Assembly: GCA_963786415.1 (NCBI GenBank)
Contig: CAWAZC010000003.1
Location: forward strand, 535,720-599,719
Direction: 5' to 3'
Source of the DNA: an uncultured Actinomycetota bacterium
GTDB lineage: Bacteria; Actinomycetota; Actinomycetes; Propionibacteriales; Nocardioidaceae
DNA length: 64,000 nucleotides
This document shows, piece after piece, positions 27,089 to 33,491 of this stretch. The translations under genes and the position numbers were made by a program. Each line of letters starts with the position of its first letter. Position 1 is the stretch's first letter. Below the pieces are notes generated by a model. That model made no database searches and had not been told where the DNA came from. It saw only the letters and a program-made list of their open reading frames with translations.

Positions 27089-28552
27089 TCACTCCCAGGT
27101 GTGCACCGGCTCGTTGCTGTGCATGTTGCGTTGGTACTCCAGCAGGGTGGCCCGCAGCGCGTCGTACCGGTCGAGGTCCGATCGCTCGTGCATCCGGGTG
27201 GCGAACCACTCCGCGCCGTTCGTGCCCTGCAGGCAGCGCTGCTCGATGATGCCCAACAGCCGGTCGCGGACGTCGGCCGAGACACCCCACGACGCCAGGC
27301 CATCGTGGGCCATCGGGAGCAGCCGCCGGAGCACCAGTTCGGTGGCCCGCACCTGCCCGATGCCCGGCCAGTAGATCTCCGCCTCGATGCCGTGCTCCGC
27401 GGCGACGTGGAAGTTCTCCTCCGCGGCGCTGAAGGACATCTGCGACCACAGCGGCCGCTGGCTGTCGACGAAGGCACGGACCAGGCCGAAGTAGAGCGCC
27501 GAGTTGGCCATCATGTCCGAGACGGTCGGCCCGGCGGCCAGGACGCGGTTCTCGACGCGCAGGTGTGGGATCCCCGACGCGATGTCGTAGACCGGGCGGT
27601 TCCAGCGGTAGATCGTGCCGTTGTGCAGCCGGAGCTCGGACAGCTCCGGAGTCCCGCCGTCCTCCAGTACCTCGAGCGGGTCCTCGTCGTCGGTGATCGG
27701 CAGCAGCGCCGGGAAGTAGCGGACGTTCTCCTCGAACAGGTCGAACACCGAGTTGATCCACCGCTCCCCGAACCACACCCGGGGCCGCACGCCCTGGGCC
27801 TTGAGCTCCTCGCTGCGCGTGTCGGTCGCCTGCTCGAACAGCGGGATCCGGGTCTCGCGCCACAGCTCCTTGCCGAGCAGGTAGGGCGAGTTGGCGCTCA
27901 CCGCGAGCTGGACGGCCGCGACCGCCTGCGAGGCGTTCCAGTACGACGCGAACTGGTCGGGCGAGGTCTGCACGTGCAGCTGCATGCTGGTGCAGGCCGC
28001 CTCCGGCACGATCGAGTCGGCGGTCGTGACCAGCCGCTCGGGCCCGGCGATAGAGATGGCGATGTCCTCCCCCCTGGCGGACATGATCTGCTCGCTGAGC
28101 AGGCTGTAGCGCGGGTTGGAGCTCAGCGTGCCCGGGGTCAGGTGGCCCTCGGCCAGCGTGGGCAGGACTCCGATGGTCACCATGTGGGCACCCACCTTCG
28201 ACGACTGCTTCTCGGCGTCGTTGAGGCTCTCCCGCAGCGTCTCCTCGAAAGTGGTGAGCCCGCCCTCGCGCAGTTTTGCCGGCGGCACGTTGATCTCGAT
28301 GTTGAACTGACCGAGCTCGGTCACGAAGTTGGGATCGGCGATCGCCTCCAGTGCCTCCGCGTTCTTCAGCGCCGGGTCGCCGTGCTCGTCGACCAGGTTG
28401 AGCTCGACCTCCAGCCCGGTCATCGGGTCGTCGGTGTCGAACTGCTCGTCGCGCAGCATCCGGGCGAAGACGTCGAGGCAGCGCCGCACCTTCTCGCGGT
28501 ACCGCGTGCGGTCGGCTCGGGAGAACTCTTGTGCTTCGACCTCTTCGCCCAT
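27089..28552 (-). CDS. Glutamate--cysteine ligase family 2 (GCS2) protein
   Basis: GLEVELNLVD, TELGQFNIEIN, QLHVQ, ANSPY, HNGTIYRWNRPVY, LRVENR. Confidence 0.85.
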   Translation of the reverse strand: MGEEVEAQEFSRADRTRYREKVRRCLDVFARMLRDEQFDTDDPMTGLEVELNLVDEHGDPALKNAEALEAIADPNFVTELGQFNIEINVPPAKLREGGLTTFEETLRESLNDAEKQSSKVGAHMVTIGVLPTLAEGHLTPGTLSSNPRYSLLSEQIMSARGEDIAISIAGPERLVTTADSIVPEAACTSMQLHVQTSPDQFASYWNASQAVAAVQLAVSANSPYLLGKELWRETRIPLFEQATDTRSEELKAQGVRPRVWFGERWINSVFDLFEENVRYFPALLPITDDEDPLEVLEDGGTPELSELRLHNGTIYRWNRPVYDIASGIPHLRVENRVLAAGPTVSDMMANSALYFGLVRAFVDSQRPLWSQMSFSAAEENFHVAAEHGIEAEIYWPGIGQVRATELVLRRLLPMAHDGLASWGVSADVRDRLLGIIEQRCLQGTNGAEWFATRMHERSDLDRYDALRATLLEYQRNMHSNEPVHTWE

Positions 28553-28600
28553 GGTCAGACCCTAGGGATCATGGGGCCCCGCGGCGAGAGTTCGTCCAGA

Positions 28601-29533
28601 TCAGGACGACGCGGACACCACCCCCTCCCACATCGACGGTGGCACCGCCTCGGTGAGGACGTGGGCCAGGTGGTGGGCCATCCGGTAGTCGGGATCGGCC
28701 TCGAGACAGCGGTCGACAGCGCACCAGGCGAGGGCGCCGTTGCCCGCGAGCCAGGCGGCGAAGCCGAGGACGGCGGCAACCGGCGCGACGAGGTCGTCGG
28801 GAGCACGACGGACCAGATCTCCCCAGAGGCGAGCGTGCGCCCCCGCGGTGTCTCGGCTCAGCAGGCCGAGCGCGACATCGCGGCCCTGCACGTCGACGAG
28901 GCACCTGAGCAGCCGCGCGGCCTCGCCGTCGCCGGGCACCGACCCGGCCGCGACGTGACCGACCACGGCCTCCGGCAACCAGCCCGGCCCGGCACGCGAA
29001 AGGGTGGGGTCGCGCACGGCTGCGGCCACGCGAGCCACCGCGACCGGATCGGGCGCGACCGTCGCCTCCAGCTCGGCCCTGGACCTGTGGGTGACCCGCC
29101 CGCTGAGCACGGACTCGGCGGCGAACGGGTGCGCCGAGACGTCGTAGGGCACCCCCGAGGACGAGACCGAGCGCCGAGACCGCAGCATCGGGAACCACCG
29201 ACGACCATCGGCCCGAAGCAGGTCGACCACCTCGATTCCGGCGTCACGGAAGGCCCGCACCAGGCGCCGGGCCACCTGGTCGGCGGGCAGCGGGTGCTCG
29301 GAGTAGAGCAGGAACAGCACCCGCCCCACGCCGTGCCGGACGCTCGGGGACAGCAGGGCCTGGATGCACTCGTCGACCTCCTGGCCGACGCGCGGCAGGT
29401 CGACCCGGGCGTGGAAGCAGCTCGGCCCGTCGAACGTGAACATCACCGCGGAGTCGGTCGGCACGAACCCGAGCACGACGGGCGCGGCGGCGAGCAGGTC
29501 CTCGGGCGAGCGGAGGTTCAGGGTCGTGGTCAT
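28601..29533 (-). CDS. DUF4192 family protein
   Basis: SPEDLLAAAPVVLGFVPTDS, RDVAL, AWLAGNGALA. Confidence 0.8.
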   Translation of the reverse strand: MTTTLNLRSPEDLLAAAPVVLGFVPTDSAVMFTFDGPSCFHARVDLPRVGQEVDECIQALLSPSVRHGVGRVLFLLYSEHPLPADQVARRLVRAFRDAGIEVVDLLRADGRRWFPMLRSRRSVSSSGVPYDVSAHPFAAESVLSGRVTHRSRAELEATVAPDPVAVARVAAAVRDPTLSRAGPGWLPEAVVGHVAAGSVPGDGEAARLLRCLVDVQGRDVALGLLSRDTAGAHARLWGDLVRRAPDDLVAPVAAVLGFAAWLAGNGALAWCAVDRCLEADPDYRMAHHLAHVLTEAVPPSMWEGVVSASS

Positions 29534-29656
29534 GACCGGAACCCTTCCCGGTCGGGCCGACGAATCGGCCCAGCGTCGGGTCGGGCTGTGGAAAGCCCTG
29601 CGGCGACCCGGGCTGTGGACCGTGGGTGGGCCGGTCCGACGGGTAGTTTGCCCATC

Positions 29657-30979
29657 ATGCGTCCGGTCGCCTCGGTGCTCCATCTCGACCTGGACGCCTT
29701 CTTCGCCGCCGTCGAGCAACGGGACAAGCCGTCGTTGCGCGGCAAGCCGGTCGTCGTCGGCGGTGTCGGCGGCCGAGGCGTGGTGTCGACCGCGTCGTAC
29801 GAGGCGAGGCGGTACGGCGTCCGCTCGGCCATGTCGACCCGGGAGGCCCGGGCGCGGTGCCCGCACGCGGCCTTCCTGTCCGGCCGGTTCCACGCCTACC
29901 GGGAGGCCAGCGGGACCGTGATGGCGCTGCTGCGCACGGCCTCCGCCCTTGTCGAGCCGCTCTCGCTCGACGAGGCCTTCGTCGACCTCGAGCGGGCGGA
30001 CCTCCCCGACCTCGAGGTGGAGACGGTCCGCGCCTTCGCCGAGCAGCTGCGGACGCGGGTCACCGAGGCGACGGACGGACTGACGGCCTCGGTGGGAATC
30101 GGCACCTCGAAGTTCATCGCCAAGGTCGCGAGCGACCTGGACAAGCCGGACGGCCTGGTCGTCGTACCCCCTGGGACCGAGCAGGACCTGCTCCGGCCGA
30201 TGCACGTCACCGTGATCCCCGGCGTCGGGCCGGCCACCACCGAACGGCTCCGCCGGGCCGGCATCCACACCGTCGCCGACCTGGAGACGCTGAGTGTCGA
30301 GGAGCTGGTCCGGATGCTCGGCAGAGCCCACGGCACCGGGCTGCACGCCCTCGCGCGTGCCCAGGACGACCGGCCGGTGGTGGCCGAACGGGAGACCAAG
30401 TCGATCAGCGTCGAGGGCACCTACGACACCGACCTGACCGACCGCAAGCTGATGGAGGGGCTGCTCACCCGGCAGGCGGGCAGCGTCGCGGAGCGGCTGC
30501 GCAAGAACGGCATGTCGGGCCGCACCGTCACGATCAAGGTCCGGTTGCACGACTTCACCACGCTCAGCCGCTCCGCCACCCTGCCCTCCCCCGTCGACGA
30601 CGCCGCCACCGTCGCGCGCCTGGCGCGCAGCCTGCTCACCGAGCTCGACACCTCCGGCGGGGTCCGCCTGCTCGGCGTGGGCGTCTCCGGGCTGGCCGAC
30701 TGGATCCAGGACGACCTGTTCGGCGACGACTCCGACGACGAGGAGGCGCAGCCGCCTGACGAACCGCTGCCCGGCCCTCCGCGACCGGTCTGGTCACCGG
30801 GCATGGACGTGGTGCACGACGAAATGGGGAGGGGCTGGGTGTGGGGCTCGGGCCGTGGCGTGGTGACCGTGCGCTTCGAGACCGCGCAGACGCCGGCCGG
30901 GCCGGTGCGGTCCTACCCGATCGACGACCCCGCGCTCAGCGCATGGCGACCGGAGGACCCGGCCGGTGATCCGGAATGA
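29657..30979 (+). CDS. dinB: DNA polymerase IV
   Basis: HLDLDAFFAAVE, SYEARRYGV, LSLDEAF, KVASDLDKP, clamp motif QDDLF. Confidence 0.95.
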   Translation: MRPVASVLHLDLDAFFAAVEQRDKPSLRGKPVVVGGVGGRGVVSTASYEARRYGVRSAMSTREARARCPHAAFLSGRFHAYREASGTVMALLRTASALVEPLSLDEAFVDLERADLPDLEVETVRAFAEQLRTRVTEATDGLTASVGIGTSKFIAKVASDLDKPDGLVVVPPGTEQDLLRPMHVTVIPGVGPATTERLRRAGIHTVADLETLSVEELVRMLGRAHGTGLHALARAQDDRPVVAERETKSISVEGTYDTDLTDRKLMEGLLTRQAGSVAERLRKNGMSGRTVTIKVRLHDFTTLSRSATLPSPVDDAATVARLARSLLTELDTSGGVRLLGVGVSGLADWIQDDLFGDDSDDEEAQPPDEPLPGPPRPVWSPGMDVVHDEMGRGWVWGSGRGVVTVRFETAQTPAGPVRSYPIDDPALSAWRPEDPAGDPE

Positions 30980-31820: not shown

Positions 31821-32422
31821 CTCGGGACGAACCTGACCCTGGTGCCCGGCGCCAGAAGGGCGGGGTGGTCGCGGGAGGCGTCCCACAGGACCGCGTCGGT
31901 CGTGCCGAGCAGTCGCCACCCTCCGGGCGACTCCCCCGGGTAGACGCCGCACCACGACCCGGCCAGTCCGACCGACCCCGCGGGGACGCGTGACCGCGGC
32001 GAGTCGAGGCGGGGCACGGCCAGCCGCTCGGGCAGCCCCGAGAGGTAGGAGAACCCGGGGGCGAAGCCGCAGAAGTCGGCGACGTACTCCACGTCGGAGT
32101 GGGCCGCGACCGCGTCTTGCTCGGTCATCCCCCAGCGCTCGGCGACGAACCCGAGGTCGGGTCCGTCGTAGTCCACCGGGACCTCGACGAGCTCGCCTGG
32201 CTCCGGACTGATCGACGGGCTCCAGCCGGACAGTGCCCTGATGAGCTCGTCAGGGTCGGGGACGCCGTCCAAGAGCACGCTCGCGGCGGCGGGCACGATC
32301 TCGTCGGCCGGTAAGGACTGCTCACGAGCCCACGCGGCCAGGGAACGGGCAGCCGCGGAGTCCTCCAGTTCGACCAGCACGGCGTGGTGGCCGACGGAGA
32401 GGGTTGTCAGGGACTGGTCCAC
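31817..32422 (-). CDS. pxpB: 5-oxoprolinase subunit B
   Basis: VPVDYDGPDL, GFAPGFSYL, VPAGSVG, SPGGWRLLG. Confidence 0.88.
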   Translation of the reverse strand: MDQSLTTLSVGHHAVLVELEDSAAARSLAAWAREQSLPADEIVPAAASVLLDGVPDPDELIRALSGWSPSISPEPGELVEVPVDYDGPDLGFVAERWGMTEQDAVAAHSDVEYVADFCGFAPGFSYLSGLPERLAVPRLDSPRSRVPAGSVGLAGSWCGVYPGESPGGWRLLGTTDAVLWDASRDHPALLAPGTRVRFVPR

Positions 32423-32449
32423 GGGGACAGTCTGGACCGCATCTCGGGA

Positions 32450-32645
32450 AATGGGTGAGGGGCCCTTCGATGGTATGAGCATCAAAGGGCCCCTCGATTT
32501 GATCGGTGATGTGACGCCCGATCCACCGGACAGAGCCTCCGATCCCGCCGTCCCCGTCACCGGGCCGACGCGGCGAGTTGCCTCGCCGTGCGGATCCTTG
32601 TCTCCGTCCGATCCCCAACCTCCCCGCGAACGGTTCGGTTGGTAG
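32450..32645 (-). ncRNA. Putative structured non-coding RNA, family not recognised
   Basis: Nested helices with GCAA and GUGA tetraloops, G-U pairs only in the minus orientation, upstream TTGCGC-N18-TAGAAC, 3' 16-bp hairpin. Ends are approximate. Confidence 0.7.
32457..32495 (-). terminator. Intrinsic terminator-like hairpin ending the putative ncRNA
   Basis: GAGGGGCCCUUUGAUG-CUCAUAC-CAUCGAAGGGCCCCUC then ACCCAUUU. Confidence 0.7.
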
Positions 32646-32715
32646 GGAGAGTTCTACGGGGTCGGGGCGTCGGCGCGCAAGCGTTTTCGGCAACCGATTT
32701 CGACAAACTTCTGGT

Positions 32716-32796
32716 CCCACAGCCTCCTCCACAGAAGTGCCGGAAAGGTCCACAGAATGGGGCGATCTCTCCACAGTTCCGGGGCTGGGTTGTGGA
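32716..32796. promoter_or_regulatory. Phased TCCACAG (DnaA-box-like) repeat array
   Basis: TCCACAG at 32728, 32749 and 32770 (21-bp period), CCCACAG at 32716, inverted TTGTGGA at 32790. Confidence 0.55.
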
Positions 32797-32801
32797 TGGA
32801 C

Positions 32802-33491
32802 TCAGAGCCCGCGCAGCACCCATCCGGCGTCCTCGAGCGCCCGCCGCACGGCGCGCGCGTGACCCACCGCGCCGGGGCTGTCGCCGTGGACGCAGACCGA
32901 GTCGACCGTGCGCGCGAGCTCGACGGCGTTGGCGGCGATCGTGGCGCTGTCCGAGAGCACCGCTCCCGGCTGGTCCCGCGGCACCAGCCGTCCGTCGTCG
33001 CCGTACCCCCGGTCGGGGAAGCCCTCGAGCAGGATCCGGCGACCCGCGGACCGGGCCAGGTCGAGGACGACGGCACCGGCCATTCCGAGCACCGGCAGCG
33101 AACCGGACCCGGCCAGGACAGCCTGCGCCTGTTCCTCGTCGTCGATCACCCGGTGGTAGAGCGCGCCGTGCGGCTTCAGGTACCGCACCGAGGTCCCCTC
33201 CGCCTGCGCGATCTCGCCCAGCGTCCCGACCTGGTCGGCCACCTGGTCGCGCAGCAGGTCGGGTGCGACGTCATGAGCGACCCGGCCGAAGTTCTCCCGG
33301 TCGTCGTAGGACACCTGGGCACCGACGGAAACACCGAGTTCGGACGCCTGGGCGCAGACCGACCGCATGATCTCGCGGTTGCCGGCGTGGTAGCCGCAGG
33401 CCACGTTGGCGCTGGTGACCACCGCCACCAGCGCCTCGTCGTCGGTGACCTCCTCCCCCAGGTCGGCGTTGAGATCGACGAACCCGCTCAT
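32802..33491 (-). CDS. pxpA: 5-oxoprolinase subunit A (LamB/YcsF)
   Basis: DLNADLGE, SANVACGYHAG, YLKPHGALY, SVCVHGD. Confidence 0.92.
   Translation of the reverse strand: MSGFVDLNADLGEEVTDDEALVAVVTSANVACGYHAGNREIMRSVCAQASELGVSVGAQVSYDDRENFGRVAHDVAPDLLRDQVADQVGTLGEIAQAEGTSVRYLKPHGALYHRVIDDEEQAQAVLAGSGSLPVLGMAGAVVLDLARSAGRRILLEGFPDRGYGDDGRLVPRDQPGAVLSDSATIAANAVELARTVDSVCVHGDSPGAVGHARAVRRALEDAGWVLRGL

Follow-up and report, generated by a model that had tools for sequence, protein, structure and literature searches.

Among described RNAs, the nearest in kind to the one reported here are Ms1 (MTS2823) and 6S RNA; Ms1 is an abundant, structured actinobacterial small RNA (sRNA) with its own promoter and terminator and is not an obvious base-pairing regulator. 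The raiA motif RNA, known from the Breaker-laboratory motif surveys, is a complex orphan structured noncoding RNA. LhrC and RsaE are sibling sRNAs with UCCC seed loops, some antisense RNAs present YUNR U-turn loops, and the Escherichia coli thrS operator is a regulatory-RNA mimic of a tRNA anticodon arm. At the DNA level, clusters of DnaA boxes outside the replication origin (oriC) include datA of E. coli, those of Bacillus subtilis and DnaA-regulated promoters. To our knowledge, few widespread bacterial RNAs of complex fold still await description, and every such RNA discovered to date has led to new biology. Here, we analyzed a stretch of 64,000 nucleotides (nt) of contig CAWAZC010000003.1, from an uncultured member of the Nocardioidaceae (assembly GCA_963786415.1), which is referred to below as the window. 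The gap between two 5-oxoprolinase genes in the window, pxpA and pxpB, contains a real gene for a highly folded small RNA of ~196 nt. We propose, with a probability of roughly 0.58, that it is a free-standing gene of an undescribed structured-RNA family, that its promoter lies behind DnaA-type boxes and that the RNA acts in trans via the loop CUCAUAC of its terminator.

The RNA gene lies on the minus strand at 32448..32643, from its putative start to a U-rich tail, and was delimited by its fold, by covariation and by model matches in relatives. A 5' hairpin, P1 (32615..32642), is formed by CCAACC/GGUUGG with an inner CCG-UUCG-CGG. It is followed by a junction domain (32525..32612) with changes on both sides of its pairs, in which the 11-bp (base pair) helix P2, AUCGGACGGAG/CUCUGUCCGGU (32612-32602 with 32535-32525), and P3, GAUCC/GGAUC (32596-32592 with 32545-32541), lead into P4, CGGCGAG-GCAA-CUCGCCG (32588-32571), and into P5, a CGUCG..CGGCG hairpin (32570-32546). 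The hairpin P6, GAUCGG/CCGAUC (32501..32523), comes next, and the transcript ends in P7, an intrinsic terminator (32457..32495) consisting of a perfect 16-bp stem (32495-32480 with 32472-32457), a loop of 7 nt, CUCAUAC (32479-32473), and the U-rich tract ACCCAUUU. Folding the minus strand for minimum free energy (-113.9 kcal/mol, z = -5.14; none of 200 shuffles did as well) recovered every helix listed by the initial annotation, each where it had been placed. The plus strand, in comparison, gave z = -2.43. Three G-U pairs, two in P2 and one in P5, become A-C mismatches on the opposite strand, and the earlier claim that they are specific to this orientation is thus borne out. The same annotation had found no credible open reading frame (ORF); in a 21-copy MAFFT alignment of homologues there were many insertions and deletions of 1-2 nt, and because of these a coding function is excluded.

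No described family accounts for the gene. A search of the whole window with Rfam 15 at gathering thresholds returned only a tRNA elsewhere, in agreement with the initial failure to place the RNA in a known family, and relaxing the search to E values up to 10 on the region gave three chance matches of 11-17 bits, with neither 6S nor raiA among them. None of eight diverse homologous loci reached threshold in Rfam; their best match, BjrC68 (23.7 bits vs 39), covers only two generic hairpins. A literature search likewise yielded nothing of relevance on a Nocardioides RNA motif, an sRNA with DnaA boxes, an oxoprolinase RNA motif or the loop sequence. The raiA motif and other orphan noncoding RNAs resemble this RNA in length (~200 nt), in a complex fold with tertiary contacts, in their occurrence in Actinobacteria, in independent transcription and in variable gene contexts. 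However, there is no match to raiA in sequence or structure, and the helices, the promoter with DnaA-type boxes and the invariant terminator loop all differ.

Covariation is evidence that the RNA itself is conserved. RNAalifold, applied to 21 sequences, predicted 48 pairs and found compensatory changes in 23 of them. In order to count pairs in a larger set, 64 copies were aligned to a covariance model, R1, built from a 168-nt core, and shuffles and slid pairing partners served as controls. Standard pairs filled 87.9% of paired cells vs 70.6% in the shuffles, 50 of the 56 pairs had changed on both sides, and the covariation score was 0.471 vs 0.173 for shuffled alignments (0.471 was reached in 0 of 500) and at most 0.078 with slid partners. 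Changes on both sides affected every pair of P2, P4 and P5 and four of the five pairs of P3, as well as all six pairs of P6, in which 90.6% of cells were paired. The proportion of paired cells was 94-97% in P3, P4 and P5 and 69% in P2, the distal part of which is weak in distant relatives. The stem of P7 covaries in 13 of its 15 pairs. P1 is outside model R1 and was not predicted by RNAalifold, so it has no pair count, and its support consists of compensatory variants in the 21-copy alignment, such as CCGAUCG/CGGGUCGG and CCGGC/GCCGG.

The alignments also revealed a tertiary contact. The loop of P5, GGUGACG (32555..32561), is complementary to CGUCACC in the loop of P6, which holds GCGUCAC as the 3' strand of the pseudoknot (partner positions 32516-32511), and the two loops covary. 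Variants include GGUGAUG/CAUCACC, GAUGACG/CGUCAUC, GCGAUG/CAUCGC and GGUGGCG/CGCCACC. Seven pseudoknot pairs were 96-97% paired, four of them with changes on both sides. Since these pairs are absent from model R1, the alignment was not fitted to them; the claim is made on the model-aligned set, as most loci of a larger alignment of 112 copies had been fetched with a pattern requiring GGTGACG and CGTCACC, which makes that alignment unsuitable. The initial annotation had described both junction hairpins as closed by GNRA tetraloops. The GCAA loop of P4 stands in this genome; relatives have a loop of the UUCG type or a stem longer by ~20 nt instead. The GUGA loop of P5 does so only in this subfamily: the inner CCCG/CGGG stem is absent in most relatives, and because GGUGACG pairs covaryingly with the loop of P6, the supposed tetraloop is one strand of the kissing interaction. 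The compensatory changes in the helices, the strand-specific G-U pairs and the covarying loop-loop helix demonstrate that selection acts on the RNA.

The gene has its own signals for transcription. Promoter statistics were collected from 170 unique homologous loci. In most of them, the -35 element, TTGCGC here (32675..32680), reads TTGCGC, TTGTGC or TTGCGG and precedes the -10 element by 18 nt; the -10 element (32651..32656) reads TAGAACT in 128 and TAGAAAT in 34 of the 170, so that the promoter TTGCGC-N18-TAGAAC of the initial annotation is both present and conserved. An A seven nt past the -10 element was invariant in the 21-copy alignment, and its equivalent at 32643 is the probable transcription start. 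At the other end, the 16-bp terminator stem that had been noted is perfect, its hairpin is GC-rich, and both the hairpin and a tail of the form CACCYWUUU are conserved in the alignment. Contigs from four soil metatranscriptome studies, for which we examined positions 32300-32900, cover only 32481-32656; pxpB, pxpA and the box array upstream of the promoter are free of contigs, and several contigs have no mismatch to the window. This coverage supports transcription of a discrete RNA.

Homologues are widespread among related bacteria. BLAST with the gap showed 32661-32446 to be present in 26 of the 36 genomes searched within the genus. This genome carries a single copy, and model R1 matched 108 of 151 genomes of Nocardioides, usually with 1-4 copies each. 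Matches were obtained in 34 of the 60 genera of the family, a tally that includes one weak match from an unpublished genome, in 30 of 44 genomes (8-9 Mb) of the neighboring Kribbella-type family, and in a few cases in two further families of the order. A class-wide search with R1 gave only four weak matches outside the order, and R1 is therefore probably too narrow to mark the outer limit of the family of RNAs. When one genome per species was scanned with a sequence pattern and carriers were named from record titles, copies were found in Nocardioides, Marmoricola, Kribbella and metagenome-assembled genomes of Propionibacteriales, all within the order, and in Terrabacter, Knoellia, Ornithinimicrobium and Intrasporangium outside it. 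The limits of the family are wider than R1 detects, and its range takes in Nocardioidaceae, Kribbellaceae, some Propionibacteriaceae and genera of the Intrasporangiaceae type. The carriers, which number in the hundreds, are common soil bacteria, among them most Nocardioides and Kribbella and the genera of the Terrabacter group. One record titled Streptomyces sp. SID13031 (locus L180) has the RNA in a Kribbella-type context, behind co-oriented genes for an ABC ATPase and an ABC-2 permease; this record may be mislabelled or contaminated.

The terminator loop is the most constant part of the RNA. CUCAUAC was identical in all full-length copies inspected, in both orders, and it conforms to the YUNR U-turn pattern. 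A single base separates it from CUCAUAA, the anticodon loop of both tRNA(CAU) genes of the same genome. Like an anticodon arm, P7 presents a loop of 7 nt that reads C-U-CAU-A-C, with a U at the second position (position 33 of a tRNA), the triplet CAU in place of the anticodon and a purine next to it (position 37), although the mimicry itself is predicted. The genome contains a single other CUCAUAC hairpin, at 1432133-1432179 of contig C1, directly after a gene that we guess, from its C-terminal sequence, to encode adenosine deaminase. At the same position, three relatives (G019, G005 and G014) have a short sRNA of ~70 nt, as a tandem pair in G014. The promoter of this sibling is cTTGCGC-N18-TACAACT, with the general form cTTGCGC-N18-TA(C/G)AA(C/A)T; it keeps the CUCAUAC loop and has neither the P2-P6 body nor DnaA-like boxes. 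Short forms occur in other families of the class as well. Further divergent copies in such families include a variant of ~370 nt with inserted domains (L144), which has the same -10 element, a GGUGAUG loop and a CUCAUAC terminator, and a copy with three TGTGGA boxes (L143), whose terminator was not seen in the stretch inspected. Since the loop is common to the long and short siblings, it is a shared module, and it is probably the effector of the RNA.

This organization invites comparison with sibling sRNAs of the LhrC and RsaE type, which are likewise multicopy and often tandem and which keep an identical loop while their stems covary; here, one loop is shared by a long and a short sibling. 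In contrast to their seeds, CUCAUAC is not anti-Shine-Dalgarno, its complement contains AUG, and the long form has a large pseudoknotted body. A mimic of the thrS type is comparable in that a 7-nt loop copies an anticodon loop, with 6 of 7 bases here matching tRNA(CAU), but the present RNA lies outside any synthetase leader, its stem is much longer, and the mimicry is a prediction.

The likeness to tRNA raises the alternative of a protein-titrating decoy, in which the loop would imitate the anticodon loop of tRNA-Met or tRNA-Ile2, or in which the body would bind RNA polymerase in the manner of 6S and Ms1. Candidate partners would be MetRS, TilS, an anticodon nuclease or the ribosomal P site. 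The anticodon-like composition of the loop and its invariance across two orders are consistent with such a role, and compact pseudoknotted bodies are more typical of RNAs that bind proteins or ligands. The absence of Hfq from Actinobacteria, which is established knowledge, points in the same direction, as does the very high summed contig depth over the core in soil RNA libraries, although this depth is summed over the numerous relatives present, reflects abundance poorly and is no measure of expression. However, no partner gene accompanied the RNA in any of the contexts examined, the stem has 14-16 bp rather than the 5 bp of an anticodon arm, and the branched fold differs from the rod with a central bubble that characterizes 6S and Ms1. 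Identity with Ms1 was rejected on length, fold and locus. Ms1 measures ~300 nt and, like 6S, forms an extended, irregular rod that is opened by a bubble at its center, whereas this RNA is branched, has ~196 nt and is held by a kissing-loop pseudoknot; in Nocardioides and Kribbella, Ms1 has been assigned to an intergenic region at another locus, next to a gene for a HAD hydrolase annotated with 'inhibition of morphological differentiation' (PMC9130861). The neighbors of the RNA described here, in this genome and in relatives, are instead genes for a prolyl oligopeptidase (POP), pxpA, pxpBC and dinB, or an amidase gene and hyuA, or ABC transporter genes. We consider a decoy unlikely.

The gene context was mapped with tblastn and Pfam for ~170 loci, in order to distinguish a regulator in cis from an RNA acting in trans. 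In the window, the minus strand carries pxpA (LamB_YcsF, 33491-32802), a gap of 379 nt, pxpB (CT_C_D, with a GTG start at 32422) and pxpC (CT_A_B); a dinB-type polymerase gene converges on the cluster past pxpC, and the POP gene diverges from it upstream of pxpA. In the genus, the first type of locus has sigma-70 and POP genes on the opposite strand, then the RNA and a convergent dinB gene; the RNA is constant, and pxpA before it and pxpB and pxpC after it are optional. Pxp genes are missing next to the RNA in at least 34 loci. In these, the RNA is followed by the convergent dinB gene and is preceded by a POP or sigma-70 gene on the opposite strand or by a co-oriented GNAT gene. These loci include that of the closest relative of this genome, whose RNA is 93% identical, and some of them lie on contigs of megabase size. 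None of the at least 34 has a co-oriented downstream gene, yet promoter, structure and loop are intact, with compensatory changes. In the second type of locus, an amidase gene is followed by one to three tandem copies of the RNA and by a Hydantoinase_A/oxoprolinase gene, all in the same orientation. These copies are variants of ~182 nt with a P4 longer by ~20 nt, they stand 290-510 nt apart, and most have boxes, a promoter and a terminator of their own.

Outside the genus, the surroundings change again. In Kribbella, the RNA stands after ABC transporter genes and the gene that comes next converges on it; in the three Terrabacter loci where ORFs could be placed, the next downstream gene is also convergent. 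In other genera, the downstream gene encodes an exporter of the ThrE type, phosphoenolpyruvate carboxykinase (PEPCK), a histidine-kinase-like ATPase or a convergent dehydrogenase. The initial annotation had left two choices, an independent sRNA of ~190 nt or a regulator of the 5-oxoprolinase genes in cis (attenuator or riboswitch), and had proposed to decide between them by asking whether homologues always precede pxpB. They do not; the loci without a pxp neighbor, the varied contexts, the tandem copies and the gene's own promoter and terminator uphold the first choice. The conclusion that the RNA is an independent gene, and not a riboswitch of pxpBC, is supported by these data, and the RNA is probably trans-acting. 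Within the limits of a comparison of sequences, we regard it as demonstrated that the small RNA is conserved and pseudoknotted and is encoded by a free-standing gene that has a promoter and a terminator of its own.

Several observations weigh against a free-standing gene that acts in trans through its loop. The complement of the loop, GTATGAG, occurs at only 27 sites in this genome, and these form no coherent target set; four of them fall at plausible start codons, those of a GH15 glycosidase, a LytR_cpsA_psr protein, a DUF1579 fragment and an ORF of 84 amino acids (aa), none of which suggests an obvious regulon in this genome. The last base of the -10 hexamer is C or A, a departure from the usual T. 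The metatranscriptome contigs cannot define transcript starts or ends, so the bare flanks are weak evidence for the ends of the RNA. Three relatives (G030, G033 and G035) have three head-to-tail copies between pxpA and pxpB, the middle one partial, with boxes and a TAGAAC promoter at the first copy only; the promoterless copies are therefore expressible by read-through only. In addition, within the genus, the RNA lies 10-150 nt upstream of pxpB in 46 loci and precedes a hydantoinase/oxoprolinase gene in more than 30, and in one genome of another family (locus L083) it stands before pxpA, pxpB and pxpC in the same orientation; a cis regulator would show such a pattern.

These placements are the main argument for a cis leader, in which P2-P6 would sense 5-oxoproline or a related lactam or amino acid and the terminator would gate read-through into the oxoprolinase genes or antisense transcription of dinB. 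The aptamer-like complexity of the fold, with a covarying pseudoknot directly before the terminator, would agree with this role, as would the sharing of one RNA by two nonhomologous enzymes of the same annotated activity. However, the RNA is not a steady 5' leader of a co-oriented related gene, as is evident from the convergent-facing loci and from the unrelated downstream genes of other genera, and most tandem copies have a promoter each. Riboswitch expression platforms, moreover, do not feature an invariant terminator loop. pxpB itself has a putative promoter of the leaderless type, CAGACT-N6-GTG (32420..32434, minus strand), a conserved motif that is a neighbor of the RNA and not a part of it; the Pfam match to CT_C_D starts just downstream. 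The initial annotation had already noted this promoter. Its conserved form, NANACTGG-N4-RTG, combines a hexamer resembling a -10 element with the spacing of leaderless genes and recurs directly at the start of pxpB in nearly all loci of the pxpB type, as well as at some hyuA starts. The motif occurs ~85 times in this genome and may therefore be a general form of leaderless promoter in the genus. Since pxpB and some hyuA genes have their own promoter past the terminator, no read-through from the RNA is needed, and pxpA and pxpBC should be annotated as separate transcription units in these genomes. A cis attenuator or riboswitch is accordingly disfavored and, in our estimate, improbable; the repeated placement beside two unrelated enzymes annotated as 5-oxoprolinase is the reason why a cis or co-regulatory role retains a low probability.

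Upstream of the promoter lies an array of DnaA-box-like hexamers (32716..32796, minus strand). In this genome, TGTGGA is found at 32775-32770, 32754-32749 and 32733-32728, with a spacing of 21 bp, followed by TGTGGG at 32721-32716, and there is one inverted copy at 32796-32791. Two or more TGTGGA hexamers occur within 140 nt upstream in 146 of the 170 homologous loci, and the distances between boxes peak at 21 bp (163 intervals, or 241 for 20-22 bp). Among downstream control stretches, 151 of 170 have no box. The array boxes read yTGTGGAsrA, and copies of the Terrabacter group carry TGTGGAcaa, which is the exact complement of the Streptomyces DnaA-box consensus; the actinobacterial consensus is TTGTCCACA, or TGTGGACAA on the other strand. 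The usual origin of Actinobacteria is the spacer between dnaA and dnaN. In this genome, that spacer (C1:603896-604307), the likely oriC, contains three TGTGGA and one TCCACA, the former as TGTGGAgag once and TGTGGAcga twice. Its boxes read TGTGGAcgacac, the same as the box nearest the promoter at many RNA loci. The origins of four more genomes (two of Nocardioides, one of the Kribbella type and one of a third family) have four to six such hexamers. Because the same hexamers recur in the array and in origins, the boxes are DnaA-box-like by sequence, and we infer that DnaA binds the array.

In the 3.08-Mb genome, only five clusters have three or more hexamers within 60 bp; one is this promoter and another is the dnaA-dnaN spacer. 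The rarity of such clusters, of which only four exist besides oriC, and the 21-bp phasing in most loci would also fit an element that works at the level of DNA, titrating or regulating DnaA like datA or the B. subtilis clusters, with the transcript incidental. Like those clusters, the array has three to four boxes of the same orientation on one helix face, here upstream of a promoter, and they match the organism's own origin. Against this, selection acts on the RNA, the short sibling keeps the promoter type and the loop without boxes, and the contigs from RNA libraries lie on the transcript and not on the array. We consider a purely DNA-level role very unlikely. The locus differs from the known clusters in that its product is a structured sRNA, a case of which the literature searched gave no example. 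The remaining three clusters of the genome, at C1:584075-584100, C1:1008290-1008395 and C3:830364-830397, are possible further DnaA-regulated sites. A fourfold tandem repeat of ATTCGGCTGGAC adjoins the dnaA stop codon in the dnaA-dnaN spacer.

A mobile or repetitive element, such as a miniature inverted-repeat transposable element or a repetitive extragenic palindrome, or a chance fold of GC-rich DNA, which folds well, might be suggested by the several copies per genome in many relatives, but it is refuted by a fold far better than shuffles, covariation far above both controls, a single copy here and 1-4 copies at syntenic loci in relatives, with no terminal inverted repeats or target duplications seen.

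The favored reading, a free-standing RNA acting in trans, can be stated as a mechanism. The promoter sits behind three or four helically phased TGTGGA boxes that are identical in sequence to the DnaA boxes at the origin, and DnaA, or a protein of the same box specificity, would set transcription of the RNA. The transcript folds into the 5' hairpin and the multihelix junction P2-P5, which is locked by the kissing interaction of 6-7 bp between the loops of P5 and P6, and this pseudoknotted body may serve as a folded scaffold or as a sensor. The anticodon-like U-turn loop on the terminator would be the effector, either by pairing with GUAUGAG in a start-codon context or by being read by a protein. 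The frequent adjacency to 5-oxoprolinase genes in Nocardioides might reflect shared locus history or co-regulation, with pxpBC transcribed independently of the RNA. Among these steps, our confidence is highest for control by the array of DnaA-type boxes and falls from there to action in trans, to the loop as effector and finally to the body as scaffold or sensor.

A more specific version, in which a DnaA-set riboregulator couples the state of replication or growth to gene expression, with the loop acting across AUG or by mimicry of tRNA-Met and the body as the sensor, is offered as a tentative possibility. Were it true, it would represent a new class of cell-cycle-linked RNA, distributed over two actinobacterial orders and present in soil metatranscriptomes. 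Control by DnaA, if correct, would make this the first sRNA, as far as we know, to be wired to the replication initiator, and a loop that acts as a tRNA mimic or as a start-codon seed would point to a novel way of controlling translation in a phylum without Hfq.

Two minor observations concern the annotation of the neighboring dinB gene. The 1292-aa ORF at 27101-30979 on the plus strand of the window is a high-GC artifact, because only its C-terminal third is a dinB-type polymerase. A DUF4192 gene lies on the minus strand at 28601-30550, beneath the N-terminal part of this ORF.

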